Source: Obrimoposthia wandeli
Taxonomy: Eukaryota
Length of the DNA stretch: 64,000 nt
Direction of reading: 5' to 3'
Assembly (NCBI GenBank): GCA_977020255.1
Contig: CDROCS010000088.1
Location: 1-64,000 of the forward strand
A model generated the notes under the pieces. That model worked only from the letters and a program-made list of their open reading frames with translations. It made no database searches and was not told where the DNA came from. Shown here one piece after another: positions 3,133-60,611 of this stretch; the stretch's first letter is position 1; the number at the start of each line of letters is the position of its first letter. Made by a program: the position numbers and the translations under genes.

Positions 3133-3327
3133 GAAGTCACCAGTAGGTACACTCGATCACAGATCGAGTAGCCCTTTTAACTAACTTCGATATGTGATCG
3201 AAACAAGTTTACTGTTTAGGATCGAATCAATCTTTAATATATTATTTATTAAATATATTTATTTAAAATCATATGTAAATATTTTAAACACTTAAAAATG
3301 TATTAGTATGGTAAAAAGTTTTATTAG
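3133..3327 (+). repeat. Left copy of ~195-bp inverted repeat (partner 10860-11057)
   Basis: gaagtcaccagtaggtacactcgatc...aagttttattag is the near reverse complement of 10860-11057. Confidence 0.9.
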
Positions 3328-3931
3328 AATTTGAATGTAAAGTTATGGAAATTGTTATGGTTATGTGAGAAATGTATTGCCAAGATAAGGATAAAGTTTT
3401 GAATAAAGTTTGCCTCAAGTTGATTTTTTAATATGCCTTCTCCAATGTTTGAGGATCAAAAATTGGTAGCAGAACGAAAAAGATCCTACTAGTAGAAGAG
3501 GACTATAGAAAATGTTATGAAGAAAATGATGCCGATGACTTCAGGTGGTGATGTAATGGCATCATCTATTTCTCAACAAAAGTGCCTCCTCGGGATCAAA
3601 GACCCGAATTTGTAGCCCAAGTGACTTGTAATAGAGGCAGGAAAATGCAGTACTGACGTTTAATGAATAAATTCATTCAGGGCCAGTATACAAGTTCGAC
3701 ATTGCTAATTAAGTCTGCCTTCTCAAGGATAATGTTTCGGTTTATGCCGTTGATTCATTTAGGAAATGCACAGATGAGGTAACGACAATGCTTTAGTTTC
3801 TCAGTGGTGCAATTATGCTGATTTGGTTCTAATTGCATGTGGCACATGGATTTTACCTTGCATGGGTTTAATGCAGTTTAGTCTGAGAATGCTGGGATTA
3901 ATGCAGCTATTGTAGTTGACAAAGTTATGAG

Positions 3932-4167
3932 CATGGTTAAAGCTGGTTCTGTTCCATTGTTTTTGAAGCTACTTGAATCAAGCCATGGTAATGTGTAGGA
4001 GCAGACAGTCTGGGTACTTGGAAACATTATAGGATGGTTCAGCATTGCGAAAATATTGTATTGGCCTGGGTGTTGTTCAACCTCTTAAGTTTTGGAATGC
4101 ACAAGTACCAATCACGTTTCTAAGAAATGTAAGTTGGGTTATTGTAAATCTGTGTCGTAACAAGGAT
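3932..4167 (+). pseudogene. Importin-alpha (KPNA3/4-like) fragment 1, intronless
   Basis: [67 protein letters not shown] matches ARM repeats of importin alpha-3. Confidence 0.9.
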
Positions 4168-4375
4168 TTTATTCGTCACTTGTATCGTGGGATTCACAAC
4201 TTGAAGATGGTATCCATCACTGAGATTACTGATATTATGAAGGTGCTTAATAGTTTCAAAAATTACAAGCCTGTCAATGGGTTCGAGTGATCAAAGGTGT
4301 GTGCAAAAATGATTTAGCCAATGTCGCTGATGTGGAGGATGCACAAAATTTAATATTTCTGCCAATAATTAATTC
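4168..4375 (+). pseudogene. SPT5 (NGN-KOW1 junction)-like fragment
   Basis: [15 protein letters not shown]...[30 protein letters not shown] resembles SPT5 QMVPIKEMTDVLKV..LKP.WVRLKRG.YKDD.AQVD.V..AQN. One frameshift. Confidence 0.6.
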
Positions 4376-4524
4376 CTGGCTTGGACACGATGAAGAACCA
4401 GAGCGTGGAGGAAAGAAGCATCGTAGTCGCTCCAGTCGGAAAGTGTCAAATCCTTGAAACAATTGCGAAGTCAGGGTATTATTGATGATGAAGGACGAAT
4501 TTGTGATAATATTTTAATATATTA

Positions 4525-4765
4525 TATTTTAGTTGATACATTTTGGGACATATCTTATCTCACTGATGGTGGAAATGACCAAATTCAAATGGTCATTGAT
4601 GCAGATATTGTACGATTGATTGTACCATTACTGTCACACAATGATGATAAAGTTCAAACTGCTGCCTTGAGAGCAGTTTGCAATATAGTGACAAGAACAG
4701 ATGAACAGACACAATATGTTTTAAATTATGAAGCGCTCTCAGACTTTCCTCAATTACTTCGCATT
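4525..4765 (+). pseudogene. Importin-alpha (KPNA3/4-like) fragment 2
   Basis: [67 protein letters not shown], within ORF 4454-4825. Confidence 0.92.
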
Positions 4766-5839
4766 TCAAAAATATGGGCGCAACACCAATTACTTGAAGG
4801 CAGTGAGAAGCCAGTTAAAGTCTGAATCGGCTAAAATTAAAGACGAATTTACTCAATAAGTGAATTGCAAGAAAGGAACCAATAGAAACAGCGTCTTGCT
4901 AATGCTCAATAGCATTTTGCAGTAGAAAAACTGAATCTGAAGGCGGCAAAATGAAGTGAGTTAATAGAAGAAAGGTCAGTATGTATGATGTGTTATGAAG
5001 CGCTCTATGAACTACAGCGGAAAGGTGATGTACAAGACGGGATGGAACACTCTTCTTCGTTATGAAGAAACTGATGCTCTTATATGGCAGAAACAGTCAA
5101 TCAGACTGTAAATGAAGTCATTATATTTTTTGTATTATATTTTTCGTTGACTGATATTTGTTCAAATTTAATAAAAATAAAATCTTGTTTATATAGTTTC
5201 TGTGCTCTGGAACAACCAGGCGATAAGCGGGGGTTCTGGAGTATAGGAACACAAAGTAAAAATAATAAGGAGAAAAGACATCCTCCTCCCTTTTGTATTT
5301 TGATGGTTGTATGGATAGAGTGGTTATGGAACTCACGAAGGCTAGAGGAGAACGGGAAAAGTTAGGATGTATAGGGGTTGACGTGATAGAGGAAGTGAAG
5401 AGCGGGGGACTAAGAGAGGAACAGGTTTGGCTACAGAGAAAAGGAAAAAAAGGTACATCAGGAAGATAAAATTTATATTAACGACAAGATATACGTCATG
5501 CTACGCCTAAAGAGGAGGATCGGAAATTAAGGAAAAGAAACCAGCCAGATGTGATTTCAATATTGCAATAAACAATTTCATGCTGGAAGATGATAAGAAA
5601 AAGAAAAGAAGCAGAACATCTATGAAAAGTAGTATAGGTCATTAACCGAAATCTATGAGAAAAGATAGAGACGGCGTTTCAAGAGGATGACGAGCAGAAA
5701 AGAAGAAAAGATGGTTTAGTGAGCAGAAGAAGATGAAGCAGATTCGACGAAGTACAAAGGGGACAGTATGGGGAAAGACAGAGGACATGAAACCAAGGTA
5801 AGCTCAATGACCAAGATAGGCCAAGGGAAACCAGGAGTA

Positions 5840-8800
5840 AGTCAGTTGAAGAAAATTCGGCTCCCAACCTTTAGAGGAGAAGAACAAAAAGTACGAAAAC
5901 TGGCAGGCTATATTTAACAAGTGATTGACCAGTCACCGGTGGATAAAGAAGAAAAAATTCTGCACCTCCTGCAATATGTTGCCGGACAACCACTACGGCT
6001 AATTGACCGCTTGGGACCCTCCACAGAACGGTACGCTGAAGCGCTGAAGCTATTCTCAGTCAGCCACGGAGGCTTGGACAGGAATCATAGACAATTGATG
6101 GAAAAGGTGTAAGTTCAAGTCAATAAGGTGGAACAACTATCGGGATTTGGATATGTATAGCCAACTATTACAAAAGTAACCATTACGAGCACGACACTAG
6201 GAAAAGGAGGAATTAGGGGTGGTTTTCTATGTGAAAAATTGCTACAGAAACAACCAATGTTAGAAAAGTAGCATGGTCAGATTGGTTAGAAGCAGTTAGA
6301 CAAAGAGTATAATATTTTTAGAAGTATGGATACAACAAAAGGCCGAAAGTGGGCGAATAGCCGAGGAAATAGCGAGTTGCAGCAGAGAAGAACCAAAATA
6401 TAAAAATAGTGAAAGAGCAAAGACCTTCTTAGGAGAGGAAAGGCAAAAGGATAGAATGATTCCTGGACAATTTCAAAGGAGGAGGAGAGGGATAAAGTGT
6501 CTAAGGTGTAAGAAAGAGCATTACATGAACAACTGTGAAGAATTGCAGAGATTATCCGTAACAGAGAACATGATGAGTTGAAATGGAAAGTTTATGTAGA
6601 AATTGTCTGCAAAATAATCATCACGTAAAACAATGCAAGGTGGATAAATTGTGTAAAATTAGGAATTGCACCAAAAAACACCATTGGATATTACATGTGG
6701 ATGAAGATCGTATCGATGAACGTGCTGCAATCTATTTTACAAGAGGGACAAGAGAAGAAACTAAAATTTTGGCATTAAGAACCATACCGGTTATAATACG
6801 GCATAGAGGCCAAGAATTGGTGGTCAACGTCTTGTTAGATGATGTCAGCACACGCTCATATATTAGTAAGGATTTGTCACGAACGCTAAGAGTGTCAGGA
6901 CAAAAACAAAATATTCGGGTAAGTTATTGGAGGAAACGTGGAAACGATGGACTGTGTTGAAGTTAACATATAATTAAGGAGCACGGATCAAAAATATGTG
7001 AAACTAATCAACGCATTAACAGTACTAGAGATTACCGGGGACTTAGATGTAATAAATTGGTCAGTAGAAGCAAAAATGTGGAAGCATTTGGAGGGTATAA
7101 AATTCCCAGCGGTAAATGTAAAGAGAAAAGTTGAATTATTGTGGTTGCGGACAACCTCGAAATTGCAGAGTGCCCTTAAAGAAGTGAGGGAGGATCAGGT
7201 GCACCGATAGCACGATTGTTGCCGTTGGGATTGACTTGTATTGTCAGGTACGAAGAACTAATAGAGTAGGCAACACACGAGTTGGCCAGCACCTGTTTGG
7301 AGCCAGATCGAAACGGAGGAATTCAATATAGAAAAAATTTGGGAAGTAGAAACCGTACCAAATATTCAAAGCAAGTTAAGTTATAACGACAAAAAGGTAT
7401 TAAAAGAAACACGACTCGGAATAAAAGAAGTTGAAGGAAGGTATGAAGTCAGCCTACCGTGGAAAAATGAGAACGTTAATGTTAGATGGGATGGTGAAAT
7501 GGCGAACCAGCGGCATAAGAGTTTGGAGAGAAGATTAGACAAGAACACACGGTTGAGATCAGAGTACATGGCCGTCATCGAGAGCCATATCCAAAAAGGT
7601 TATATCAAGAAGGTACCGGAAGAAGAAGTAAAATGACAAAGTGGTTGTTACCACATTTTCCGGTCGTCAAGCGAGAAAATGATACAATGAAGGTGCGTAT
7701 AGTGTTTGATGCGGTGGCGGAGGTGCGAGACACAAGTTTGAATGATTTAATTCATTGTGAGCGAAGCTGCGGAGATTTAGTCACTATCTTATTAAGATTC
7801 AGGAAAAATGTGGTAACAGTTAGTTTGTGATATATCGGAGATGTATCTGAATAAAGGTGGCAGAGAAAGATAAAACGTGGCTGAGATTTCTATGGAAAGA
7901 CCGCGAACAAGTAAACACATACCGAATTGAAATGGGTAGTTTTGGGATCATTGTGTCACCATTCTTAGCACACTTGATGACACGAATAAACACTGAAAAG
8001 TTCATGGGAGTATGTGATGGGGCTATTGAGACGATATTAGAGTCGCCACATGGATGACAGTTTGGATTCGGTACCGGAAGTAGATAGGAGGCGATACAAT
8101 TACAACGGAGCCTACTGCAAGTGTGGGGCGGTGCGGGAATGAGTGCCCATAGTGGCTAAGTAGCAATCACCGAGTTAATCAACAAATCGCCACAGCAGAT
8201 CAAGCGAAGGTCTTACAAATTTTGGATGGCGAAACGATGCAAAGTATGAAGACGTTGGGAGTGGCGTGGAACGCGCAGGCCGACGATTTTGAAGTGACGG
8301 TGACGAATTTAGAGATGTTAACAACCATTCCAAAGAGGACATTTCTAAGTCTTCTGTCAAAAGTATTTGCCCCATTAGGGTTTGCTAGTCCGATAGTAAT
8401 AAGGACAAAGACATTATGCAGGAGCTATGGCTTTCAGGGAAGGAATGGGATGAGAAAGTGGAAGGGAGTATTAAAGAAGAGATAATCCTTTGGGTAGAAG
8501 ACGTAAAGTTACTGAATAAGGCTAAAGTTCCCAGATGGATACGGGCTGGAGTAGCTAGTAAATGTTCGATACATATATTTGTAGACGCTTCTGAGAAGGT
8601 GAATGGAGCAGTATGTTACTTGAGAACAGAATAATGGGAAAAAAATAGTAGTACGTTTCATAGCGTCAAAAACAAAAGTGGCACCTGTAAAAGTAAAAAG
8701 TATACCGCGTTTAGAGTTATTAGCTGCGGGTGTCGGTGTTAAATTGGCAAAGGTACTCACGAGTGCGTTAGAATTAAAGTTAGAAGAATTAAGTTTTGGT

Positions 8801-10570
8801 CCGATAGTTTGAACGTACTGTGTTATAATTGAAGAGCTGTATTATAATGCATTTGTTGCTAATCGCGTAGGACTTATACAGGAGGAAACAAGTATAGCTC
8901 AGTGGAGGCATGTACCCACAAAGTGAAACCCAGCGGATATATTGTCAAGAGGAGCCGAGGTTCATCGACTGAGCTAAGATAAACTATGGTGGGAAGGTCC
9001 CAAGTTCTTATTAGGCTCAGAACAGCGTGTGGTAACCAACACAAAAAGGAATGTCAACAGAAGTTAAAAATAAAATAAAATAAAAGTGACAATGACACAT
9101 GTTACGCAGAAGATCGATGGGTTCGACATAAACAAGTATTCGACATTAGTAAAATTACAAAGATGCATGGCGTAGATAATTCGCTTCACAACCAACACGC
9201 GATTAGATCGAGATAGACGATTATTGAAGGAACTGGATATCACAGAGATCCAAACAGCAACAAAGCGGTTGGTAAAAGATGAACAAAGAAGATATTATCA
9301 TGAGGATTATAAAAGGTTAGAACAACAGAAGTAAATAGAAAATAGCAGTGGACTAATTAAATTGAATCCATGGATAGATCCAGATGGAATAATCCACGCA
9401 AATACAAAAATGCACAATTTTTGGATTATCAGGCTAAGTTTCCGATAATATTACCATACGAAAGCTGGATCACAAGATTGATATAAGAATCCAACACAGG
9501 AAGTTGCACCATTATGCATTCGTGCAGCATGTATTGAGTGAGATCAATAAGCAATTTTGGATTCCAAAAGCAAGACGATTTGTAAGAAGCGTAGAGATCA
9601 AATGTGTGAACTGCCAAAAGAGTAAGGCGGGTGGAATGTCAGCGGAAATGGCTCCATTACCGTATTTCCATTTTGAAGAGCCACTCAGGGCATTTGTGAA
9701 CGTCGGAGTGGATTACGCAGGATCTTTTTTAACGAAGCAAGGCTGTGGAAATGTCAGAAGGAAACAGTACTTGTGTCTACTAACATGCTTACAGACCCGC
9801 ACAGTGCATTTGGAAGTCGCATATGATTTAACAACGGATGGATAGATCAGAGTGTTAAAACGTTTCATTGGAAGGCGAGGACGACCGAGAATGTTTTTAT
9901 CGGATAACGGGCGAAATTTTGTTGGAGCGATAGGAGATGTTAAGAGTTTTATACAAGTTACGTACAGTATTAAGAAAGAATTAGAAAAAGATGAGATCTG
10001 ATGGGTGTTTAACCCACCTTATACACCGCACTTTGGAGGAGTTTTTGAAATTATGGTGAAGTGTGCATAAAAGGCAATTTTTAAACTACTGAAGAACGCA
10101 GACATTAGTGATGAAGAGTTAACAACAATCTTCATTGAAGCCGAAGCGTTGATAAATTCACAGCCGATTGGGATAAAAAGTATAGATCCGAAGTAAAGCG
10201 AGGCGTTGACACTAAATCTTTTTTGATAAGCGAGGCACACGTAGAAACGGGTTTTGAAGGAGAACGGTGTGGTTTACAACAGGAGGTTCGTGCAAAAGTT
10301 GACGACATAGCTATGGAAACGATGGATGGAGGAGATTGTGCCAATGTGGGCACCTCGACAACGGTGGAATCAGGAACGTATGCCGTTGAAAAATGGAGAT
10401 ATATTTTGGGTTATTGATAAGCAAAGTGAGAGGGCAGGGAAGTTGGGGAGTGTCGTAGAGAAGTCAGTCCGGGAACAGATAAGAAGATGAGAGTAGCAAC
10501 AGTGAAGATTGGGGCCATGACGGAAGTAAAGTTGCTCAGACTCCTTTATAAGCTAGAATGTGAGGCGTGA
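5840..10570 (+). pseudogene. BEL/Pao gag-pol pseudogene (Gag with Cys/His knuckles, protease, RT, RNase H, integrase, C-terminal domain)
   Basis: LKKIRLPTF; CRNCLQNNHHVKQC..CKIRNCTKKHHWILH; VLLDDVSTRSYIS; LLPHFPVVKREND..KVRIVFDA; HMDD at ~8050; HIFVDASEK; IPRLELLAA; VGVDYAGSF; PPYTPHFGGVFE. Many stops and frameshifts. Confidence 0.93.
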
Positions 10571-10859
10571 GGAGGATGATGAAAAATAAAAGAAGGTGAA
10601 GTATGATCCGGCATGATCTGAAACTGAATCAAAGTATGATCCAGCATGATCTGAAACTGTATCGGGGGAAGGCTGTTAAGGTTGATCTAGTTAGATAAAA
10701 GGGGGGAGGATGTTTATGATCGAATTATTCTTTAATATATTATTTATTAAATATATTTATTTAAAAATCATATGTAAAATATTTTAAACACTTAAAAATG
10801 TATTGGTATGGTAAAAAGTTTTATTTGAATTTGAATGTAAAGTTATGGAAATTGTAAGA

Positions 10860-11057
10860 CAAATAAAACTTTTTATCATACCAATGCATTTGAACTGTTT
10901 AAACAAATTTTACATATGATTTTTTAATAATTTTATTTATTAATTAATATATTAAAGAATGATTCGATCCTAAACAGTAAACTTGTTTCGATCACATATC
11001 GAAGTTAGTTAAAAAGGGCTACTCAATCTGCGATCGAGTGTACCTTACTGTGACTTC
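10860..11057 (-). repeat. Right copy of inverted repeat (partner 3133-3327)
   Basis: caaataaaactttttatcatacca...gtaccttactgtgacttc is the near reverse complement of 3133-3327. Confidence 0.9.
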
Positions 11058-11921: not shown

Positions 11922-12051
11922 TCAGGTCTTGTGGGCCATGTCAGAGCTGCGACGACAGCCACATGAGCAGCAAAACTTGGCGTCTTTGCTCGAGAAGCGG
12001 TGGCCACACTCCTGGCAGAAGTGCACCTTCTCTCCCGGTTTCGCCGTTATC
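11922..12051 (-). CDS. Probable terminal exon of a host gene with a C-terminal zinc ribbon (ZC2HC1A-like)
   Basis: Acceptor ttgctgtcctccag, then ITAKPGEKVHFCQECGHRFSSKDAKFCCSCGCRRSSDMAHKT*. The FCxECG..AKFCCxCG.RR motif resembles the ZC2HC1A C-terminus. Confidence 0.6.
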
Positions 12052-12174
12052 CTGGAGGACAGCAACCTTTAAACTCCTGATAGTCAACCTGTGCCTTCAA
12101 CTAACATGTAAGTAGAGAGATGTGTCCAGTTCCGACCACCCCCCCTAGCGAAAACCGAAGAAAAAAAAAATCTG

Positions 12175-12600
12175 CAAATTTCAAAAACATACTATAATAC
12201 TTATTTTTTCTAAGATCTATGTGAAAAGTAGGTCAAATTTTGTTGTAGTACACATGATTTTTGAGGGTTAAATTCATATTTATATCACTTTATACTATAA
12301 TACGTCTGTTTTTTAGTTGATTTTACTCTGAATGTATATGTTTTTGTTTAAAACATCAATTTTTATGCCCACAAATTTAAAACATACTATAACACGTATA
12401 TTTTTCAAGATAATTATTAATGAAGGTCACATTTTGTTATAGTACACATGATTTTGAGGCTTAAATTCATAAGTAGATCATTATGTGTTGTATTACGTCT
12501 GTTTTACTCTGAATGTATATGTTTTTGTTTAAACACATCAATTTTTATCCACGCAAATTAAAAAACATACTATAATACGACTATTTTCAAGATCATTATC
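12175..12600 (+). repeat. Subterminal ~190-bp tandem repeats (left end of A)
   Basis: caaatt..aaaacatactata units start at ~12175, 12372 and 12554. Confidence 0.8.
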
Positions 12601-12793
12601 AGATGTGTCACTTTTGAATCACATCACCCTATCCCTCCATATTTCACACAAAGTGAGATGTATTCTTATGTTAGAAACATTTTATTAATATCAAAAAGAC
12701 AAATCAAAATATGTAATAATATAGACATAAATCAACAGATGAAGAATATAATAAAAATATGATACAAATACGATAAAAATATACAATAAATAA

Positions 12794-13385
12794 TCATTCA
12801 TTCATGATATACTCATCCGGATGAAGATAATGACCATATGCAACTGACCGATTTTTTTCAACCCATTTTCGCTTATCATCCGCACTACACAATGATATTT
12901 TAGATAAATGCATAGTATATAGCTGATGATTAACGGAAGTTATACGACTTTGTTGAACACGCTCACTTATACCTGTCTCATAAACAGCTAAGTAATTCTC
13001 GTGTTTTAAATTACTCTGTTTAAGATTAATTCCCTTTGCTCTCATATGTGATTCATCATTGATAGTTTTTAGGCTATAACATTTTGGACGAAGAAATATA
13101 CATTCCGTATAAGTACAAATACCCTTACTTTCATCCTTAAATTTTCCTATCGCAGTGTTAGCTGTTGAATAAAGAGGGTGATTTTTAGGATACTTAGATG
13201 TATCTAATAATCCATCAGAAACCATTGCTGGTAGCAATTGTGCTTCTACATCCACATTTCTACATTTCAAGAAGAAACTGTCAGTATCCCCAGCAACAAT
13301 TCTAATATCACAACTAAATTCCTGCGATATTTTTCAAGTTGCACGTACTGGAGCTCATACATTCGCAATTTGCTAAGATCTAGTA
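12794..13385 (-). pseudogene. pPolB C-terminal fragment from a second subfamily
   Basis: LDLSKLRMYELQY..IVAGDTDSFFLKC..GKFKDESKG..LRPKCYS..DDKRKW..SVAYGH. Similar to, but distinct from, the C-terminus of ORF 19292-20233. Confidence 0.92.
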
Positions 13386-13633
13386 GTCATGAATGAGAAC
13401 TTGTAAATATATTGAAATCCTTTCATTCTACTGAATTCATGAATCATAAATCGACTCAATTATACCAAATCCATGATAATTAATCAAATACATCAAATAT
13501 CTGTATATTCATTGTAAAACACACATCAAATATCAAGTTAATCAATAAATACATGTAAATATGTTAAACCCCAACAAAGTTCTGGTCAAGCCTATTATAA
13601 ATAACTTTGAAAAGTAGAAAAATAAATTTTTTG

Positions 13634-13918
13634 AAGGTTTTAACCCTTAAAGGTTAGACCCTTGAGGATTAACCTTCGAAGAACCATCTGCAAAGTTCAA
13701 TGGGCTATCATATAGTTAAAACCTCATGTCAATACGATCTTTAGATAAAAAGTTATTCAAGTTTAAAACTATGTTACTAAGAATAGAAGGAAAAATAACA
13801 TGTTTAAAGGTTTTAACCCTTAAAGACCCTGAGGATTAACCTTCGAAGAACCATCTGCAAAGTTCGCTGGGCTATCCTATAGTTAAGTCTGCATGTCAAT
13901 ACGACCTTTAGATAAAAT
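13634..13918 (+). repeat. Direct duplication upstream of the MCP gene
   Basis: aaggttttaacccttaaag..gaggattaaccttcgaagaaccatctgcaaagttc..catgtcaatacga.ctttagataaaa occurs at ~13634 and ~13807. Confidence 0.85.
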
Positions 13919-15148
13919 GAGTTGTGCTAAAACCGAATTGTGTATTTTTGACAAACCACTGCCTCAGGTAGTAGTTGATAGTGCTAGTTTTGAGGAAATA
14001 TTTCCAACAAATACCGTCAGTGGAACTTCTTCTCCGGATTTGGAATTCAATATAAATGGATCGAATTCTCAATATCTTGATTTGAATGATAGTCTACTTC
14101 TCGTGAAATTGAAGGTTACAAATCAAGGAGGTGCTAAACTAGAAGATGATTTGGAAATCAAAGCGGCCAATTTCATGTTTCATACGTTATTTAAGGATGT
14201 GATTCTCTGTTTCAATAATGTTAAGGTCGAAGGAAATAATACAAGTTATACGCATAAAGCAATGATTGAAACATTACTGAATTACGGAAATGATACGAAA
14301 TTGATTAATCTTGATGCTATTGGATTTGATGATGACGCAGAAAACAGAAAAGCTTGGATTGAAAAGTCTAAGGTATTGTCACTTTGTGGAAGTCTTCATT
14401 TGGATTTCTTTTTAAGAAGCCAAAGTATCTTTTGCCTGGAATAAATGTCCATATTAGAATGAAGAGAAACCCTGTAGGTTTCAGTATTGTTTGCGCCGAA
14501 ACAATTACTCCTGCAATTGAGATTACAGAAGCAAAGTTGCTGGTTCGTAGAGTAAAGGTTGAACTATCAGTACTTATCGCTCATCGCATGGGGCTTGAGA
14601 AGCAAAATGCATGTTATCCAATAAGAAAAACTAATCTTGTTTCTCATGCAATTCCCACTGGAGCGCTTTCCTATTACAAGGACCAGATTTTCGGTGACAT
14701 GCAGCTCCCGAACTTTGTTTTGATTGCTTTCCAGAACACATCGACCTATGGAGGAAGTTCTAAAAGGGAAGTTTCTCAATTTGGTCATATGCATGTGAAC
14801 TCAATAAAACTTGCACGTAATATTGATTATCAGGAAACTTACTCTAATGACTTTGAAAACGATGATTATGTGTTTTCTTATGTGCAATCTCTAATTAGAA
14901 ATCTTGGTCATTTGGATAAGGATTCCAATGTCGGTATTTCATTGCAAGATTTCAAAAACAAGTATACACTATTCACATTTGTTCTTTCTCCGGATTTCGA
15001 CATTACCCAAGCTCAAATTCCTAAACAGGGAAATTTGAAAGTAGAAATCAAGTTTACCAAAGCACTTAAAAATCCAACAAATATCATAATCTATGGAGTA
15101 TTTGATTCTGAGGTTCAAATCACTAAGGGTGGAACTGTACTTGTATAA
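13917..15148 (+). pseudogene. Polinton major capsid protein (double jelly-roll), one frameshift near 14410
   Basis: MSCAKTELCIFDKPLPQVVV..YLDLNDSLL..KPKYLLPGINV..GNLKVEIKF..IYGVFDSEVQITK. Clearly homologous to 58965-60185. Confidence 0.9.
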
Positions 15149-15177
15149 ACAGAAAATGATTCAAAATCAATTAAAAA

Positions 15178-15565
15178 ATGAAGTAAGCCTCTTTTATTGT
15201 ATTAATTAATATATAATTTTAGTTCTGACGAGATATTAACTAGCGGAAGAAAACTACTCGGTTCGCGTTTCAATGGAGTTTTCAGTCTTGATCGTATACC
15301 ATCATTGATTCACTCAGGAGGATATGTAATAAATACGCATTCATCAAATCTGCCTGGAGAACATTGGATTGCAATATATGTCTTGCTAAACAAAATATTT
15401 GTATTTGATCCCTATGGCTTATATTACCTATCTAAATTAGTCTCTACAGTACTTGATTCAAATAAGAAAGTACATTTCAATAAAATACAATACCAAAGCG
15501 CTTTAACACAATCTTGCGGACAAATCTGTTTACTGTGGCTGGCAAGCATAAACAATTTCAAATAA
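15178..15565 (+). CDS. Adenain-type cysteine protease, two exons (15178-15182; 15223-15565), 40-bp GT-AG intron
   Basis: ATG AA|gtaagc...tttag|T TCT gives MNSDEIL..FNGVFSLD..GGYVINT..PGEHWIA..FDPYG..QSCGQIC with His/Asp/Cys catalytic motifs. Confidence 0.85.
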
Positions 15566-15582
15566 TAAATAATCTATCGAAT

Positions 15583-15997
15583 ATGTCTGTTTATTTTATT
15601 GATTTTGAAGCATTTATTGATAATAATTCTGAATTTATAATAAAGGAACTATGTATAATGAATGTGAATGCGATCTTCTATCCCAAACATTATGTTTTCA
15701 AAATACAACCAGTATGGGATAAGATGAATTATAAATCATTAAAAATAAATAGATATTTAATAAATCATTATCATTAATTGAATTTATGTGATGGATATAG
15801 TTTCTTTAATCCAAAGGAAATCAAAAAATCATTTTCCAATTCAATTTTCTAATTTTAGAATCGTTAATTACTCTAAAACGTTGAAGAGTCTTTCACCTGT
15901 TCCATTTAATATTAAATGCCCATATAATGATCATGGTCATCATTGCGCCTATAATAAATGTTTATCTGGATGTATAGATTATTTGAATATTAATTAG
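15583..15997 (+). pseudogene. Small DnaQ/DEDD-like Polinton accessory protein, disrupted
   Basis: YFIDFEAFID..FIIKELC..CPY..HGHHCAYNKC. Homologous to 60612-61064, with a stop and a deletion. Confidence 0.65.
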
Positions 15998-16101
15998 GAT
16001 TCGTTAAGGGCTCAAATGATGTAATACTGTCTCAAGAAAGTATACTGGAAAAAATTACATAATCATTAAATATTATTGGCCAACAAATTTCTTTAGATTA
16101 G

Positions 16102-16107
16102 TATAAA
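16102..16107 (+). promoter_or_regulatory. Candidate TATA box of the pPolB gene in A
   Basis: TATAAA lies about 35 bp upstream of the ATG at 16141. Confidence 0.4.
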
Positions 16108-16140
16108 GTACAGAACGAATCTAAAGAAAGTGCGCACAAT

Positions 16141-19100
16141 ATGAATAACGTAAGTTTTTATTTAAAATTTTTATATTTTATATTTATTTTTAGTGCAACA
16201 TGAACAAGAATCTATGCTTTGATGATCAACATCACGAGTGTGGAATACAAATGAAGGCCTATTTCAAGAAAATCTTCAACCGAAAGACATATTTTATCTG
16301 TCCGCAATGCGAATCAGTCCAGGACATCGGTTGGACGACGTTCGTGAATGAGCACGAGCGTCATCTCGGATACTTCCAAGCTCGTGGAAAATCAGCGATA
16401 TTCCGGAATTCTCCACAGAACAGCATGAGCTATAGATCAGTTCAAGCTCCAGTGGTAGTTGCTGATCAAGTTCAAGCTCCAGTGGTAGTAGCTCCTGTAG
16501 TAGTAGCTCCTGTAGTAGCTGATTCAGTTCAAACTTCAGTTCAAGATCCTGTAGTAGCTGCTGCTGATCCTGTCAATGTTCCTGCTGATGATGATCCTGT
16601 CAATGTTTCTGCTGCTGATCCTGTCAATGTTCCTGCTGCTGATGATCCAGTCAAAGTTCCTGCTGCTCCTCGAAAACGGATTATGCCCCCGTCAAGTATG
16701 TTAAGCGCGATACCATCAACTAGTGGTGCATCTGCGGCTAAGAGTGCTAGGTTAGGGGTTTTAAGAGAAAAGAGAGGACTAAGGGGGTCTTATGTGACAT
16801 TATCGTTAGATTTGACTAGCGATAATGTTTTTGAATTAAATGTGCCGCAACACTTTATAGAATCCTTAAAAGTAACAGTTGGAGAATTTGCTACTTGTAA
16901 AGTGCAATTCGGTATCAAGGTGGAGTTTGAGAATGAGAGTGGTGTGAAACAATGGAATGTTTCTAACAAGGCCACTACATTCACTCCCGTTTTAATTGAT
17001 AGGGGTATAGAGTCTCTCAATGCGAAAATTGAGAAGTACTCTCAGAATGCCAGTAATTGGGTTCTGAAGAGGGTACTTGAAATTTATTTCATAGTAACCC
17101 GAACAACAATAATCAATAGACTACAGGGGAGTGCATTTATTCCAACATGTGACGTGTTGAAGGCATCAAGGTGCATCATTAATATTCAAAATTCTGGTGT
17201 ACTTTGTTTCATTTACAGCATTTTAGCTGTTTTGAAATATAATATTATTCCGGGACATAGGTATAGGGCATCCCAATATAATGAATTTTTATGGGAATTG
17301 AAATACGAGGATGAGGATATGCCAATGAGACTATCGGATATTCCGAGATTTGAAAGAGAAAATCCATCTCTCTCAATCAATGTATTTTCCTATAATAGGT
17401 TTGGACTATTGCCGAATAATCAGGAGATTTTCAAGAATCCGTTTATTGATGTGATATATCGGACTTGTAATCCTGATGGGGATCCGGTGAATATCCTTCT
17501 TATTGAGGAGAATGGATCTTTTCACTACACTGCAGTACCGAAACTTAATAAATTACTGAATTTTCGTAATAGAGGAGTAGGTACGCAAATTCAGAGTACC
17601 TGCACGGGTTCCGGAGAGCGCTCAGCTACGAAAAGCATATTCCTCTCTGTCGCATGAATCTAGATCGGAGCACGTTATTCACCATGCCTGCGGACCCGGT
17701 GATTACGTTTAAGGATTTCAAGAAAACAATATCTCCGCCCTTCGTCGTATATGGGGATTTCGAGTCGGTTCTTGCTCCTCACGGGATTCATCATCAGATT
17801 CATCTCCCGATAGCGGCCGGTATGTTGATGTCTCCTGTTTCCGCGATTGGATACACCCAAGACTATTCGGTCTATACTGGAGAAAACTGTGTAGTTGACT
17901 TTCTGAAGAAACTGGAGGACTTGGTGAAGTCTGTGGTGCTGCCCTGGTACAGACAGCATGCAGAGGAAGTTATGAAGCCACTTACACCGGAACAGGTAGC
18001 GAGTTACGTAGCGGCCACAAAATGTTACCTGTGTAATAAGCGCTGCGTAAATAAGGTCCGGGATCATGATCACATGACCGGAGAATTTCTTGGAGCTGCC
18101 CATTCTAATTGTAATTTGTCACGAAGACTGAATCGTGCTCTCCCAGTAGTTTTCCATAACCTGAGAGGGTACGATCTCCATCACATTCTCAAGCATGCAC
18201 TGAGCAAGTTTCCTCATTGTAGTATTTCAGTGATTCCTCAATCAACTGAAAAATTCCAGGCGATGCTCGCGCACATTGATGGAGTGTGTATTCGATTTAT
18301 CGACTCACTTCAGTTTCTGGATAGCAGTCTCGAGAAACTCGTTGGAAATTTAGGAAATGTCCTGCTTACAAATTCAATTTTCCCACTTCATCTCATCACG
18401 GGAAAAGGAATCTTCCCATACGATCTAGCGGTATCGGAGACTGCTCTTAGAGAAATCCCAAGCCTCCCCGCGAAATGGAACGATGACATCAGCAATGACC
18501 AGTACGAGCATGCAAAGAAGGTATGGACCGATCTCCAGTGCACTTCACTCTGGGACTATATGTTGGTTTACCTGAAAATCGACGTATACCTGCTCGCCGA
18601 TGTCTTCACGGCTTTCCGGTATCGGGCTATCTCAGACGACGGACTGGAACCTCTCAACTTCTTCTCGATACCTGGTTTGTTTAAATATACTGTTTGTAAA
18701 GTTTTGGTAATATTTAAAAATACTCAAATTATTTTTGTATATTTTCTGTAATTTTTTGAAAAATAATCAATTTAATCAATTTCAGGATTAACCTTCGCGA
18801 GCGCCTTCAAATCATTACTGGGCACCGAGGCAACCGATACAAGCCCAGCTATTCCGGCAGGACCTACAGTGGAACTCATCCAGAATCCGGAAATGCATCA
18901 GATGTTTCATGAAGGAATTCGAGGCGGAATGACCTTCGTCAATGAACATCACGTATCCACGGAGAATGGTGACACTTTATTATATATTGACGTGAATAAT
19001 TTATATGGCTGGGCCATGTCCCAATTTCTACCGGTAGGAAAGTTTTCATGGGTGATTGATCGGGTAGAGTTAGGGGACTTAATATCAGAACTTTCATATA

Positions 19101-20233
19101 AGGATTTAAGCTGTAGTCAACATGCACATTTAGTTGAAGTCGACTTGTGCATTCCCGATAATTTACATGATTATTTAGATGATCTACCTTTAGCTCCTAA
19201 AAAGGATTGCCCACCTGGTAGCAAAACAGCTAAACTACTTTTGACTCATTGAGTAAAAAGACACTATCTTGTCCATTCTCGTCTGCTTCAGATGTATCTT
19301 AGACTCGTTGCAAAGATACAAGCTGTTCATCGTGCAGTCAAGTTTGAACAAACTAATGTCTTTGAGCAGTATATCAAATCAAATTCAGAAAAGAGGGCTA
19401 TGGCAACAAATGATTTTGAGAAAGATTATTATAAGTTAAAGGTTAATTCTCTTTTTGGAAAATTAATAGAAAATTTGAAAAAGAGAATTAACCTAAGAAT
19501 ATGTAATACAGTACAGAAACTTGTAACTTATTGTAGTAAGGCTCAATTTCGTAAGTCTATAGAAATAGATGATGACCTTGTTGCGGTTTTACTCAACAAG
19601 GATATTATTTGTTTGGATAGACCAAGTTACATAGGGCAGGCGGTATTAGATCTGAGTAAGTTGAGGATGTACGAGCTCCAATACACTCAGTTAGAGAAGT
19701 ACAGAGTACAATTTAACTGCTCCATTAGAATTGTTGCGGGTGATACGGACAGATTCTTTCTAAAATGTAGAAACGTAAATGTTCAAGCTGACTTATTGCC
19801 CGCCATGATAACCGATGGATTATTGGATACCTCTAAATATCCTATAACCCACCCACTCTATTCGACTGCGAATACGGAAATAGGCAAATTTAAGGACGAG
19901 AGTAAAGGGATATGTACTTACAAGGAGTGCATATTTTTAAATCCTAAATGTTATAGTATGTTGACTACGGCTGAAGATTCGCATATGAGAGCGAAGGGTA
20001 TTAGCTTAAGGCAAACTAACTTAAAACATAGTAATTTCCTTGCTGTGTACGAAAGCGGAGTAAGTGAGCGTGTGCAGCAGAGCCGCATAAGCTCATTTAA
20101 TCATCAATTGTATACAGTAAAGATGACTAAAATTGCCTTAAGTAGTTCTGATAATAAACGTAAATGGGTGGAAAAGAACCGATCAGTTGCGTATGGACAC
20201 TTTCTCTATCCAGATATTGTAGAAATTGTTTGA
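16141..20233 (+). pseudogene. Protein-primed DNA polymerase B of A, with introns 16150-16193 and 18675-18785; frameshift near 17600; stop near 19250
   Basis: Motifs: IINIQNSGVLCFIYS and FHY (vOTU-like); VVYGDFES; CYLC..RDHDH.TG..CNL; FHNLRGYD; YIDVNNLYG; KLKVNSLFGK; AGDTDR. Confidence 0.93.
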
Positions 20234-20488
20234 TTTAAGGAATATATTGTTAAGTGAATTGTGTTTATTTAAACTTGTTTTTCTAACAAATATTCTTTAT
20301 TTTCTTATATAAATTTCAAAATGTATTTTAAAACATAAATTTTAACGTAACCTAGAGTAAAATATCCTTTGATCCTAAACATGCATAAAGCTCTTACATC
20401 ATTTAACCCTTTACACACATTTACTTAGTTTCCCCATTTAGTATTACATCATTTAACCCTTTCCCAGGCTTCCAATATCTTATAATTT

Positions 20489-20820
20489 GAAAATTATGAA
20501 TTTATTCCATCAAAATTAAACTTGACCTAACTAATGACTGGAATTGGCTAACATTCAGTATTTGAAATTATTATTTCTGGATAGCCAGAGAGAAACTATA
20601 TTTAGAAATCAATAAATCATTACTTAAATTTAATTTTAAATCAAACATTTTACCCTTATTATAAATTCAAAAAATTATTGATTTACGAAAATCTGTTGAA
20701 AATTATGTATTTATTCCTTCAAAATTAAACTTGGTCTAACTAATGACTGGAATTGGCTAACAATTGGGATTTGAAATTATTATTTCTGGATAGCCAGAGA
20801 GAAACTCTATTTAGAAACCT
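20489..20820 (+). repeat. Direct repeat, ~120-bp unit, 209-bp period
   Basis: gaaaattatg.atttattcc.tcaaaattaaacttg..ctaactaatgactggaattggctaaca at 20489 and 20698. Confidence 0.85.
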
Positions 20821-20881
20821 TTCAAACACTAACGAATAGTAAATTATTCGAGTAGTATTTCGAGTATTAAAAAGCGTTAGT

Positions 20882-21295
20882 AATCGAGGTGGCCCGAAAG
20901 ACACACGGTTTATTTGGTCTAAAATGAGTGAAATAGCCCTAAAATCCCTTAAAATGCCTCGAAATTCAGGTTTTTGCCTGTAAATTTGCCTAAGACCTAT
21001 ACACATACGTAAAATCTACCTGGAAATATCTCAAAATTGTCCTGAGAGTCGCTTAAACAGCCTCAGGAATCGAGGTGGCCCGAAAGACACACGTTATTTT
21101 TGGTCTAAAATGAGTGAAATAGACCTAAAATCCCTTAAAATGCCTCGAAATTCCAGTTTTTGCCTGTAAATGTGCCTAAGGCCTATACACATGCGTAAAA
21201 TCTACATGGAAATATCTCAAAATTGTCCTGAGAGTCGCTTAAACGGCCTCAGGAATCGAGGTGGCCCGAAAGACACACGTGTTTTTCCGTCTAAA
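20882..21295 (+). repeat. 186-bp subterminal tandem repeats (right end of A)
   Basis: aatcgaggtggcccgaaagacacacg at 20882, 21068 and 21254. Confidence 0.92.
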
Positions 21296-24200
21296 ATATG
21301 TCCGAAAATGACCGAATATTGACCGAAAATGACCGATTTTGTCACGACGATTCGTCTAAATTTGTCCCTAATTTAGGGAGTACAACATGTTTTGACTAAA
21401 ATTTCCAGAAAATTCGTCTAAATTTGTCCCTAATTTAGGGAGTTTGACCAGTTTTGAGTGAAATTTTCTGAAAAAATTCTGTCGCTGGGGAGGGGGGTGG
21501 GGGGGGGGTGGCCCGAAAGACACATATCCCCCTACTCATGTAATAACATATATATGAAAATACCCATAACTGATGATACAGAAGGACATAGACAATGGAT
21601 TCACTTTGACTAATCAGCCCATTTATGGTACTGTAAAAAGCCGAGATTAGACAGACACCAATACTACAAATGTGGTTACTTAAAAATAAAAATTGACAAC
21701 TATTAATTATTAACAAGTAAAACCGACAACAAACGATAACCTTTCAGTTAAAAATACATTTCTATATAAAGTAATATATAATTTTTGCACTCAAACTGAT
21801 GGCGATACATCGAATGTTGCAAAAAAAAAGCACTATAGTAATAAAAATATTCCGCTATTAGATAAGATCCATATAGGCAATTGGGATATGAAACTACCAA
21901 GCATGTCTAGAAACTGAGATTGGAGTTTATCAATGTACAAGATTAAACATAATAGGTCTTCTTTTTAAATATTATTGTGAATCAAAGATTTTGTCTCACA
22001 TAATTTATTATTCCGAAACCAATCTTAAACATAAATTAATAAACACGGATAGTTTTATTTAGAAACTATGAAATATTTTCATTCCAAACATGAAAAATAA
22101 GCCTTTGGACAGGTGACATTTTCAACAAAGTTGCCTTCCTGAAATATTGAATCGGAACAACATAGAAACACAAAGATATTCATGAAATACAGTATGGTGG
22201 TACAATTGTCCTATTTCATCTAGTTAAGATTACAAATATTTATAACTGTCTAGCTGACGTGACTTGCATTTTTTTGTCTGCCACAGCTTATGCTGTACAT
22301 GTTAATAAAAACTTCAGTGCAATGCGCGTGTCTGTTACTTGTTAGACAAATCGCTCACGACAAAAATGAGTTTGATACCATACATCACTATTTTCTGTTA
22401 TATTAGATAACCCTTGTTTAGGTCTATTTGTATGTGCCCAATTTTGTGGCCATCATAGCATTTTAAAATAGTTTTTGACGAGTTTTAAAGTAGTTAAAAT
22501 AAATCGGGATTATTGCTTTGGGTTTTTCAGTATATTTAAACTTTTAAAATAATCTTTAAAAAAATCGTAACAAAAATGAAACAATCTAAATTAAAACACG
22601 CCATTATATACAGGATAATTCAAAGTAATGGTCACAAATTCAATTCCTAGTAATTTACAAAATTTACTTTGTATAGAATACATTTTTCTTTTAATTTCTT
22701 TATAAAATCTCAATTTCATGAGATTAGGAATTGAAGCTGAAATAGTCATTGTGATCACCTTCTACACATAAGTAATTTTTGCTTCAGATAGAGTCAAAAA
22801 TGCTACAATTTACAAATGTAATTAAATTTAAGAAATCAAAGATGCGTTATTATATTGATAAAAATATTCCTAAAAGCAATTTAAAAAAGTCGAACATTCA
22901 TATATTTTATAAGTTTTAATAGAATTATATAAACTTTATTTTTAATCTCTATCAAATGGCCCAGAAAATTCGAATCATTTCTGCTCTAATGGCATATATG
23001 TTTTTAACCCAATATGATTATGATTGATATAAATTACAATGTTAAATTTTTAAAATCCCTTGTTTATTAATCGAATTACCAACTTTGAAAATTTAAAATT
23101 TACAAGAAAGTCATTTATTGAATTTCAGTACAATTTTAATGGTAATTAAATTACGTTAATTGAAATTGCAAAATTAAAATCGTAAAGCAAATATCAAACT
23201 AATGAGCATGTCAGTTGTTTCTTAAAATCTCAATTCTCTGAAAACAATTAATTTAAACACTCAGAGGATGCAATTACTTTTTTCGTGAGTTAGCTAAAAT
23301 TAATTAAGCTAACTGAGAAATCAGTTTCAACAACACGACGAATTTACAGATTTGTCAACAATTCAAACAATTGTTATAATTTCCTTGGAAACTGTTAAAA
23401 AAGAAAGTTAGCCTCAAAATCAATGTATCTAAAATTTGCTACGTCAAGGTTTCACAATTTCATTTACTGAAATGTAGTGATTTTATAACGAATACCTTTG
23501 ACAGCGTTCTTTTCAACATATCGTTATTATTCTATCTCAATTTATTCCCCTTATTTGAAAAAAACTTTTAAAGATAAAAAATTATACTCATACAGTAACA
23601 TACATTTATTCAAATAGACTGAGTCTTTTTACACCGAAAATTACGACATCGAAAGTCGAATTTTATAACTTTAAAACATAAATTTCAAATTGACATAACA
23701 CAAATTAAAAAAAAATGATTACTAAATAATTTTTTTCACTGTTGGATGTTTGTTGATTATTTGTATTTACTATTTTTCATTTATTATCAAAAAAAGTATT
23801 ACAATTTCAGAGTTATGAAAAAGAAACATTGAATTCTGAATCCTTTTTAAATCTGAAATTAAAGTTTCAAAGTTAGGAAATTTTAATTTTTTAAATATTT
23901 ATTTTTTCTTTTATAATAAAATTTTGGTTTAAATTATTAAAATAAGTATTTTATATTTTCGTTCGTTCTCTCTGTGTTTATAAAGAATAATATTTCTATT
24001 GTTATGAAAACTTTTAAATTATATTATAAATTTTCAAAATTTCTGAATCCATTAAAAATAACGAAAAACTCCACAACATCTATTTTTTATAAAAGTTTTA
24101 CGACTAGTGATTTATTTATAGTGAATCAACATTATTTGAAAAAAATTCTTTAGGGATGATAATTTAAATGACTGGATATTAGTCAGTAATTCCTCCTACG

Positions 24201-49950: not shown

Positions 49951-50830
49951 AGTAGGTGGAAGGATGGAGTCTAAGCCACTTGACCCCCCCCCAAAGGGTG
50001 TCACTCCATAAGGATGTCACACCATAAAAGGTGTCTTGCCACACCATAAGGGTATATGTTGCCTCACCTCTGGTGAGGCAACATATACCCTTATGGTGTG
50101 GCAAGACACCTTTTATGGTGTGACACCCTTATGGTGTGACACCCTTTAGGGGGAGGGGGGTCAAGTGGCTTAGACTCCATCCTTCCTTGATATACTACTA
50201 TGGTCGTCCATAGTTTAAAGGGTCAAGTGGCTTAGTCTCCACTCTTCTTTTTGAGATATACCACTATGAAAGGGTCAAGTGGCTTAGTCTCCACCCTTCT
50301 TTTTGAGATATACCACTATGAAAGGATCAAGTGGCTTAGTCTCCACCCTTCTTTTTGAGATATACTACTATGAAAGGGTCAAGTGGCTTAGTCTCCACCC
50401 TTCTTTTTGGCTAACTACTAATTCAAAGGATCAAGTGGCTTAGTCTCCACCCTTATTTTTTGTGATCTAGTCCATAATGAAAATTTATGATAAAGTTCAC
50501 ACTTAACAATTAAGAATGTATGACGTAATCATACACACACTATTCTATGTGAAATTTATACTAAGTTCACTCTTATTAGTTAAGAATGTATTACGTAATC
50601 ACACACATACTATTCTATGTGAAAATTTATGATAAAGTTCACTCTTATCAGTTAAGAAATGTGGTTTTTAACACACACATACACTATTTTACGTGAAATT
50701 TAAACTAAAGTTCACTCTTATCAGTTAAGGAATGTATTACGTAATCACACACATACTATTCTATGTGAAAATTTAGATCAAAGTTTTTTCCCAGGCTTAC
50801 ACATCTAAAGAATTATGTTAAAATTTGTAT
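49951..50830 (+). repeat. Left TIR of B: 229-bp palindrome, five 52-bp repeats, ~65-bp AT-rich repeats
   Basis: Palindrome 49958-50186 centred on gcctcacc-TCT-ggtgaggc. tcaagtggcttag cores at 52-bp period (units at 50221, 50273, 50325, 50377, 50429). Confidence 0.95.
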
Positions 50831-50898
50831 TAAATCAAAATTAAATCAAAAATAAATAAGAAAGAAGTCAGAGAATAATACAAAATTAAACACATTTA

Positions 50899-53800
50899 TT
50901 ATGTTATTTCATAATGTCCATAAGCGCGGCTTCTATTTTTCTCGATCCAATAGCGCTTGTCATCTGATGAGCTGAGAGCAGTCTTTTGTATTATGATTGT
51001 ATATAGTTGATGATTTATTGTTCCAAACTTCTTTTGAGGTATAGTATATGCAATACCGTTTTCATACACATCTAAATATGTTTGATGTACAACCGTTGAA
51101 CCCTTAAGATTTACTCCTTTTGCTTTATTATTTTCAAAGTCATCTTCAAACTTAAGTGAATAACATTTACAAAGTAAGAAAATCCATTCTTTATACATTC
51201 TTCCTTCCGATTCATCTTTAAATAAACCTATTTTACTATTAAATTTATTAGAATATAATGGATCATTCACATTATAATTTGACGTATCTAATAATCCATC
51301 TGCAATCATTTTTGGTAACAACTGTTTTCTTAAATTAACGTTTTTACATTCCAAAAAGAATGAATCGGTATCACCGGCAACTATATTAATTGAACAATTG
51401 AATAAATTACGATATATTTGCAAATCATGATACTGAAGAGTATACATTCGTAATTTGCTAAGGTCTAGTACAGCTTGGCCTATATAATTTGGTCGATCGA
51501 GACAAATAAAATCTTTTCTTAATAAAACAGCTATTAAATTATCATGAATTTCAATTGATCGTTGAAACATAGGTTTGCTAGTATATGTGATTAATTTTGT
51601 AGAACTAGTGCAGATGCGAAGATTCAATCGTTTCTTAACATTTTCAACAGTCTTTCTATACAAACTAACATTTTTAAGTTTATAAAAATCTTTGTCACAT
51701 TTATTCGTTGCTTGTGATCTCATTTCTGAATTATATTCTATATATTCTGCGAATATCTTAGCCTGAGAGAATTTTACTGCTCGATGAATAATTGTTACCA
51801 CTGCTCCTAAACTAACATACATCTGCAATAGTCTCCAATGAATAACATAATGACTTTTTGGCGAATGTGTCATTAAAAGTTTTTCAACTTTTTTACCAGG
51901 TGGACATTTCTTTTCTGGAGCTATAGGAAGATCATCTAAAAAGTCATGAAGGTTTTCTGGTATTACCAAGTCTACTTCCATAAAATAACCATATTCAATA
52001 TGTTCCATGTTCACATTTTTCATTTCATGCAATATTTCGTTTAATTTTATATCATCAAGAATCCATTCAAAATCTCCTTTGGTAAAGGTTGATCAAGAGC
52101 CCATCCATATAAATTATTAACATCTATATATAAAAGTCTTGTTTCTTCATCAGCGACTACATGATGCTTATTGACAAATGTCATTCCTCCTCGTATACCC
52201 GAAGAAATCATGTTGTACATTTCAGGATCCTGCATCAGTTCAACCTTATGTTTTAACATTTTTAGTGCACTTGCCCAACTCAACCCAGGAATGCTAAAAA
52301 AGTTAAGTGGTTCTAAACCATCTTCACTGAGAGCTTTTCTTCTGAATGTTTGAAATACGTCAGCTAATAAATATACGTCAGTCTTTAAGTAAACTAACAT
52401 ATAATCCAACATATTTCTACAATTGGTTATTTTCCAAACATCTTGTGCTTTTTGATATTCAGTGTCTGTGATTTTATCATTCCATTTTACTGGTAAACTT
52501 AACTTATTCTGGAGGACATTTAATGATGTAGCAAAATCATATGGGAATATTCCTTTGCCATCAATAAGTTTAGATGGAAAAACTGATCTTGTTAATGGAA
52601 TAGTTGGTAATTTAGTTGCTAAATTTTCCAAAGATGATTGTAAAAATTGCAAAGAATCTATAAATCTCAGAGTTATTTGACCTAATCTTACAATCATGGC
52701 TTGAAACTTTTCCGTTGATTGTGGTATAATATTTATATCCCAGTCAGTAAATTTATTCAATGCATGTTTTAAAATATGATGTAAATCATAACCTCTGAGA
52801 TTATGAAACACAATAGGTAAAGTTGGACGAAGTTTTCTTGATAAATTACATTCATTGCATGCCGGACCTAGATATTTACCAGTAAAGTGATCATGATCTT
52901 TAACATATTTTTCAGATGATTCGTGACATAAATAACATTCATCGGCATTGCTAAATGTATGAATCTCTGCATTTGTTAAGGGAATCATTACGTTTTTAAG
53001 AGCATCTAAATACCATGGCAAAACCTTTTCTTTAGCCAAGTTCTCTATTGACTGAAGAAACTTAACTATGCAGTCATCACCAACATTATATTGATACTGG
53101 GTTTCAATTTCATCTGTACTCATAAATAACATGCCAGATGCGACAGGCATATGCTTTTGATGATAACTCTCATCTGGTACTAATACAGATTCAAAATCAG
53201 CGTAAACGACATATTTCGGTGATATAGTTTTTGACCAATCGTTGAATTTAACGTACTTATTCTTAGGCATAGTATACATTGTAGTGCTTTCTTGATTATA
53301 GTCACATAAAACTTTATGCTTTTCTAATGACAAATCGGTTTTGAAACCATGTAAACACTTTTCACACCATTTTCTGCTAATTCTAGTCGTTCCAGTTCGA
53401 ATATTTAATAGCCGGTTAAGACAACTTATTCCTATATAATGAAATCGTTCCTTGGATTCTAGTAACAATAAATTAACTATAGTTCCTTCCTTCATTTTTG
53501 ATTTGTATGCAACATCGATATAAGGATTCTTGATAACATCAGTTTTTGATTCTTTTTCACTTACCTCGTTGAATATGAATACATTTATTATTATACCAGG
53601 ATTTTGCCGTTCAAATTTTGATATATTTGATATTTTCATAGGCATGTCTTTGGAATTATATACAAAATCATTTAAAAATCTTTCATAGTTGCTTGGTCTA
53701 TTTCTATGTGAGTCTATTTCATTATATTTAAGTATTGACAATATTGCATAAATAAAGCAAAGATTATCAGAGTTTAGAATATTTATGACTGCTTTAGATT

Positions 53801-54534: not shown

Positions 54535-54640
54535 CTGATGATATGATTGATTTGATTGGACTGATTGGATATTGGTTGATTTGTAGACTGAATAAAAAAA
54601 ATATATATATAAATACAATAATTTAATTATTTTACTTACA

Positions 54641-55926: not shown

Positions 55927-55927
55927 A

Positions 55928-58524: not shown

Positions 58525-58567
58525 ACAATATAAATATATTTAAAATATAAATATATATATATATAAA

Positions 58568-60557: not shown

Positions 60558-60611
60558 TTTTAAGTATAAACAAATATATCATTTTAGTATTTCATTTTAT
60601 TTTATTTTCAA

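Follow-up and report, generated by a model that had tools for sequence, protein, structure and literature searches.

Introduction

Genes of intact vertebrate Mavericks are reported to lack introns (PMC8097293, citing Kapitonov and Jurka 2006), and in nematode Mavericks the core genes are intronless, introns being found in captured cargo genes (10.1101/2022.07.12.499685). The elements analysed here lie in a window of 64,000 nucleotides (the whole stretch of DNA studied) at the start of contig C88, in a genome of 1.35 Gb. The host can be placed no more closely than among invertebrate animals: its CCT4 shares 60–66% identity with most of the animal proteins compared, none of which is a close match. 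They have in common with the vertebrate and nematode Mavericks a pPolB, an rve integrase, an A32-like ATPase, an adenovirus-type protease, a 6-bp target duplication and terminal repeats. However, unlike the elements of these two sources (PMC8097293, 10.1101/2022.07.12.499685), they have GT-AG introns in pPolB, in the protease gene and in a TBP gene borne by the element.

Introns have been described in other related systems. Dinoflagellate maverick-polinton-like elements contain, as here, spliceosomal-type introns inside the element (10.1101/2025.03.18.643946). The introners of those elements are recognisably mobile and were mostly inserted after integration (10.1101/2025.03.18.643946), whereas the introns described here appear fixed, old, mutually unlike and inherited with the element. 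Intron-rich mirusviruses also have short GT-AG introns in core viral genes, which have been taken as a sign of nuclear transcription (PMC12768974). However, mirusviruses are large protist viruses with very many introns, some of them holding endonucleases (PMC12768974), whereas the animal Polinton described here measures 10–15 kb and its introns are tiny, one or two to a gene. Cryptophyte polinton-like viruses contain self-splicing, structured group I introns of 309–376 nt (PMC12220804). By comparison, the introns studied here are 38–150 nt long and consist almost entirely of A/T, and Rfam at gathering score returned no match over 12000–21600, giving no sign of group I or group II self-splicing introns in that interval.

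In the literature covered, whose scope excludes subscription papers, Repbase and supplements, we found no description of spliceosomal introns in core genes of animal Polintons, nor any mention of them in the accessible parts of 10.1101/2023.08.22.554363, 10.64898/2026.07.28.741278, PMC11296320, PMC8502044 and PMC5718144. Polintons with old, fixed spliceosomal introns in their core genes are unusual for elements described as intron-free, and intronless core genes fit the viral view of these elements.

In the Drosophila P element, the third intron lies in the key transposon enzyme, its retention truncates the protein and its splicing is regulated. The likeness to the elements of the window is that of an intron in a key enzyme whose retention would truncate the product; regulation is known in the P element only.

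Elements A and B

Two elements of the window, A and B, are considered here, together with the remnant of a second polymerase type, C, inside A:

12111–21536, + strand: element A as inserted, with ends AGTAG..CTACT and the target duplication CATGTA at 12105–12110 and 21537–21542
12794–13333, − strand: 3′ remnant of a C-type pPolB, which is whole in other copies and has introns there at both sites
49951–61872: element B, with terminal inverted repeats, the target duplication GAGGTG, and genes for TBP, ATPase, integrase, protease and pPolB
50899–54534, − strand: pPolB of B, with no interruption at either site 1 or site 2 and with two frameshifts in the window copy

Their assignment to Polintons/Mavericks is based on a protein-primed family B polymerase, a retroviral-type integrase, a packaging ATPase and an adenovirus-type protease, and on the termini: inverted repeats with GAGGTG in B, AGTAG..CTACT ends with CATGTA in A. 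Pfam retrieved rve integrase, Pox_A32 ATPase, TBP and, below the cut-off, Peptidase_C5 in B; Peptidase_C5 was above the cut-off in A, as were two of the three pieces of A pPolB matched with PF03175. Neither Pfam nor PDB sequence matches detected capsid proteins, and the labels MCP, mCP, PW, PZ and EXO are putative, given from gene position. The pPolB frames of B extend to about 1,240–1,250 codons in many copies, and only B-like copies were matched when protein P0013 was used as a genome query.

The window copy of A has a broken pPolB (a frameshift near 17573–17657 and an in-frame stop at 19250–19252) and contains neither integrase nor ATPase. An integrase homologue was found upstream in nine of 16 sampled A loci, and the ATPase also lies upstream in A copies. 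In ten of the 16, integrase, further core genes upstream, or both can be seen, and nine of these ten are continuous with the capsid region of the window copy. Long terminal inverted repeats were sought for the composite in the window and not found.

As a separate observation, the two ends of this composite each hold an outward-pointing pPolB gene, one A-type and one C-type, which have diverged to about 71–72% DNA identity; the interior consists of capsid-like, protease and exonuclease-like genes, with no integrase or ATPase. The target duplication in the window indicates that the composite moved as a unit, although the window copy is without about 4 kb of the C-type gene. Three of the 16 sampled A copies are such composites, which also occur on contigs C1877, C1596, C829, C1515, C1368, C3763, C6690 and C4305.

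Two probable introns in the A polymerase gene

The sequence-only reading had placed GT-AG introns of 44 and 111 nt in the pPolB of A, the second splitting a Gly codon, and had held both to be absent from B. All of this was borne out: B is uninterrupted at both sites, and the gene structure of A is as follows:

16141–16149, + strand: pPolB exon 1, three codons (MNN)
16150–16193, + strand: intron 1, 44 nt, phase 0, GTAAGT..TTTTAG
16194–18674, + strand: pPolB exon 2, N-terminal region to exonuclease domain
18675–18785, + strand: intron 2, 111 nt, phase 1, GTTTGT..TTTCAG
18786–20233, + strand: pPolB exon 3, polymerase core

Intron 1, with 7% GC, separates codons 3 and 4 (MNN|CNMNKNLCFDD), and the 14-residue spacing of its junction is matched by MSICKTYSNICFSD of B. 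Intron 2 contains in-frame stops and has 16% GC, against 48–50% in the 200 nt of either flank. It splits the Gly codon of FFSIPG|LTFASA, and tblastn with the B protein opens a 37-codon gap exactly there. Only GT..AG fits the register, as read from the sequence; shifts by one base give GG..CA or TT..GG.

Among 120 homologues picked as single long ORFs, a choice that biases the set towards intronless genes, the residue after Pro is Gly in 115 and Ser in five, and exactly 29 residues separate it from GxRGG in 115, as in B. This constancy argues that the gap at intron 2 is not due to chance. The corresponding distance in A is 43 residues because of a 14-residue in-frame loop downstream, and would be 80 with intron 2 retained.

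The GT donor, AG acceptor and pyrimidine/U-rich 3′ end are those expected of U2-type spliceosomal introns, and the ends of intron 2 agree with the gap against uninterrupted homologues. A branch-point motif, TTAAT, is found at −14 in intron 2 and is also present in the protease intron of A; none was found in intron 1 or in the protease intron of B. The end of the preceding exon resembles the end of intron 2, so the intron may stem from a tandem duplication of the junction, but a pyrimidine tract followed by CAG explains the likeness equally well.

Fixation among copies of A

Intron 2 is not a copy-specific insertion, the outcome that the sequence-only reading had itself named as contrary to its claim, as every A copy with both flanks carries it. 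It was present with GT..AG in 30/30 of the best DNA matches among A copies, in 30/30 A loci found through the upstream exon alone, and, taking the first 30 of 226 matches to the downstream motif, in all 28 A loci that have both flanks (the other two are without the upstream exon); the three samples overlap. Its length varies between 79 and 148 nt. Over the 80 matched A loci, an in-frame stop lies within the intron in every case, and the length is not a multiple of three in 22. Intron 1, of 39–46 nt, was present in all 30 best A matches. A gapped pattern allowing 0–30 nt between the exons retrieved no intronless A junction in the host genome.

The same site in other polymerase families

The intron-2 position is also occupied in families C, D, E, F and G. 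At least five other polymerase families of the genome have a different AT-rich intron, of 38–425 nt, at the same codon. In family C, a GTTAGA..ATAG intron of 38–46 nt was found there in 26 of 29 loci; of the remaining three, two are without the motif and one corresponds to a neighbouring family. When the codons following the acceptor were searched for with a degenerate motif, the genome gave 3,201 matches. Among the first 30 of these, 26 have both flanks, and all 26 hold an AT-rich insert of 42–425 nt ending in AG; 23 inserts begin with GT and three with AT, and together they belong to at least six families. The motif for an intronless junction gave five matches, against 3,201 for the downstream exon. 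These five were rejected as false, since some introns end in ATTCCAG and so mimic Ile-Pro-Gly: three have a full intron upstream, and two are the AT-rich end of an intron without an upstream exon.

Interiors of intron 2 in A and C are no more similar than shuffled sequences (z −0.3), while those of D, F, G and I resemble one another (z 2.8–7.8). The donor is the non-consensus GTTTGT in most families and GTAAGA in family E. The ten codons after the acceptor, which precede the first Met of exon 3, differ from those of A at 5–8 synonymous and no non-synonymous positions across six families; the C loci in this comparison were found independently of the downstream motif. Codons directly after the acceptor are thus under purifying selection. 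Across families, exon 3 has a pN of 0.085–0.19 and a pS of 0.45–0.84, and nine of ten pairs of intron-2 families have a pS of 0.74–0.84, that is, they are synonymously saturated. Loci of families D and F also contain integrase or capsid genes.

Start-adjacent pPolB introns were detected in families C, D, F, G and H as well, the last of which is distant. Their register differs by 1–2 codons between families: MNN|C in A, MTN|C in C, M|NC in D and G, and MPM|ITC in H. In A, the third codon of exon 2 is itself an ATG, so that an open reading frame does not strictly depend on intron 1. The C-type exon 2 begins with CNINK and has no Met nearby; therefore, the upstream ATG, and with it intron 1, is needed in C. 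In family F (L257:3650–4240), the N-terminal cysteine module of pPolB is duplicated, with an intron-like GTAAG segment before either copy.

Introns in the protease and TBP genes and a candidate in the B leader

Element B is not free of introns. Three further features of the window concern the protease genes and the B leader:

15183–15222, + strand: intron of the A protease gene, 40 nt, phase 2, after ATG AA
60187–60224, + strand: intron of the B protease gene, 38 nt, with phase and position as in A
54588–54639, − strand: candidate intron in the B pPolB leader, 52 nt, GT..AG, 53 nt before the ATG

Of 30 A loci, 25 matched the protease intron, and it is present in 12/12 B copies. Among metagenome relatives, the start of the protease gene is visible in five, and in four of these the intron directly follows the start codon (L266, L269, L270 and L289, against L284). 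Common to A, B and relatives in other hosts, it appears to be older than intron 2. In A (L339, L344, L338, L333), in H (L253) and in another family (L256), the TBP-like gene borne by the element is split at one and the same codon by a phase-1 GT-AG intron. This intron is missing from the TBP-like gene of B (54641–55105), a distribution that points to its loss in B. The candidate leader intron, of 47–56 nt, was found in 29 of 30 B copies; it lies outside the reach of protein alignment.

History of the introns

The contrast between A and B had been read, from the sequence alone, as ongoing gain or loss of introns. That gains and losses did occur in this Polinton lineage stood up; that they are ongoing did not. 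Neither A nor its sister families were seen to be polymorphic for intron presence, synonymous sites are saturated among the families with intron 2, and B stands far from A on the tree, not as a recent intronless sister, and has an intron of its own in common with A. The sequence-only reading had proposed mapping the introns on a pPolB phylogeny, and among the sampled loci the intron-2 families form one clade with a single change, which fits a past event and not ongoing turnover.

The maximum-likelihood tree was built from natural stop-free stretches downstream of intron 2 (30 rows, one region of 436 columns). A single clade (100/100, stem 0.62) unites families A, C, D, E and F among uninterrupted relatives, and its sister is an uninterrupted metagenome locus (85/93). 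Families B and H are placed outside, and the intron-2 trait requires one change. A quick tree of 54 rows agrees; the 24 rows dropped from it were distant outgroups, long branches and near-duplicates. Seven of the 20 loci chosen from the genome itself had no stop-free stretch and were left out, so that families G and I are missing from the tree.

Downstream motifs retrieved 34 metagenome loci, and site 2 is uninterrupted in all 22 that cover it. No start-adjacent intron between ATG and Cys was present in the six metagenome loci with a visible pPolB start. A pattern scan of viral contigs gave 76 matches, no relative among them. Independently of these two sites, the metagenome relatives have three further GT-AG intron positions in pPolB, none of them common to A or B (L284; L285, L286, L288).

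Synonymous saturation among the intron-2 families indicates that the gain is old, and since more distant homologues are uninterrupted too, a gain on the stem of the A-C-D-E-F clade is the simplest reading. As judged from these comparisons, intron 2 is an old, fixed gain and not part of a continuing turnover; the history of intron 1 is less certain. Module swapping between elements, as in the composite of A and C, may distort the history read from the tree. Taken across pPolB, the protease and TBP, the differences in intron content indicate repeated gains and losses during a long history of this lineage.

Probable spliceosomal introns and alternative explanations

We consider that both segments are most probably (about 0.9) ordinary U2-type GT-AG spliceosomal introns removed by the host from the pPolB transcript, and that intron 2 was gained once. 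This is based on their position, ends and composition, on their fixation across copies, and on a common codon position with unrelated interiors. Introns of the same style are found in chaperonin genes of the host (e.g. GTTAGT..TTTTAG, 85 nt). Host RNA polymerase II would transcribe the element in the nucleus, and the spliceosome would remove introns 1 and 2; translation of unspliced RNA would end at a stop within intron 2 and not reach the polymerase core. The gain of intron 2 would date far back, to the stem of the clade formed by A, C, D, E and F, and the intron would have been inherited since, with free turnover of its interior.

Three readings without host splicing of old introns can be weighed against the same observations. 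If the inserts were unspliced and inactivating, the A-type polymerases would be dead and the elements copied by the intronless B family. B is indeed very abundant, with many open frames, whereas the window copy of A is broken and without integrase, and three of the 16 sampled A copies are composites lacking it, so help in trans likely occurs. However, purifying selection on exon 3 is strong across families, the unrelated sequences at the intron-2 site all keep GT and AG, and many A copies are open for about 850–900 codons around the exon-2 query, the length expected up to the intron stop; dead A-type polymerases are thus highly improbable. Equally hard to credit is a split gene, in which exon 2 would end at a stop in an AT-rich spacer and the core would be translated separately from a downstream Met. 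The site does lie between the exonuclease and polymerase parts, and a Met precedes GIRGG in exon 3, but the codons of LTFASAFKSL, between AG and that Met, change only synonymously across families. This conservation ahead of the first Met of exon 3 disfavours a split gene, which would also require neither a Gly codon split in a constant phase nor invariant GT and AG ends.

A recent, still-running gain of introns driven by an introner-like mobile element is only marginally more plausible. Many intron positions are compatible with it (pPolB sites 1 and 2, the three more in metagenome relatives, the protease and TBP), and introners have been reported in dinoflagellate polinton-like elements (10.1101/2025.03.18.643946). 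However, no polymorphism was seen within families, synonymous sites are saturated, and the introns of A are unlike one another (z −1.2 to −0.4). All five window introns are mutually dissimilar (z at most 2.1, for window introns only). Their terminal repeats do not exceed the AT-rich background (5–8 of 12 end matches), with a direct repeat of 1 nt only.

Ordinary host-removed introns could in addition have acquired a regulatory role. By analogy with the P element, intron 2 might act as a splicing switch, with the start-adjacent introns of pPolB and the protease gating in a similar way, which we regard as unlikely. Retention of intron 2 would then yield a stable product with terminal protein and exonuclease but no polymerase core, and its removal, for example only in the germ line, would yield the full enzyme. 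The location of intron 2 at the exonuclease/polymerase boundary, its persistence through synonymous saturation, the stop in 80/80 A loci and the retention of a non-consensus donor in most families are consistent with such a switch. On the other hand, family E has GTAAGA, host donors vary too, and stops are expected in any AT-rich intron. If true, the whole invertebrate Polinton lineage would have put its replication and virion maturation under the host spliceosome.

As ordinary spliceosomal introns, fixed and inherited in polymerase, protease and TBP genes, they would link these elements, over long periods, to expression in the nucleus with splicing by the host, and the lineage offers datable intron gains in genes whose relatives lack introns. 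With thousands of copies present, splice junctions would make it possible to tell active transcription apart from genomic background. Screens that demand a single ORF would score intron-bearing Polintons as decayed.

Other features of the window and genome

A tandem satellite of about 456 bp is made up of the end of intron 2 and the start of exon 3 (window 18716–19143; also contigs C1686, C2410, C5234 and C6874), and likely explains a 5–8-fold step in the depth of four sequence runs from one sample. Among the joints listed from these runs (15 of 70 in one mapping, five in another), none corresponded to intron 1 or intron 2, a result without bearing on splicing. Many start codons of the elements are preceded at a short distance by TATAAAC(A/G) (window 15147, 15545–15560 and 60565; L257, L258), a motif that is a possible shared promoter. 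The terminal repeats of B (49984–50156 and 61669–61839) contain near-perfect hairpins of 84–85 nt and tandem units of 52 nt. Outside the two elements, a 7.9-kb stretch between inverted repeats (3133–11057), with a hairpin at 10711–10976, contains remnants of Pao-type retrotransposons and an armadillo-repeat frame at 4427–4825. Elsewhere in the genome, about 20 intronless, full-length frames (about 550 codons) of divergent CCT-like chaperonins were found on many contigs (L301–L314 onward), beside intron-bearing host genes.
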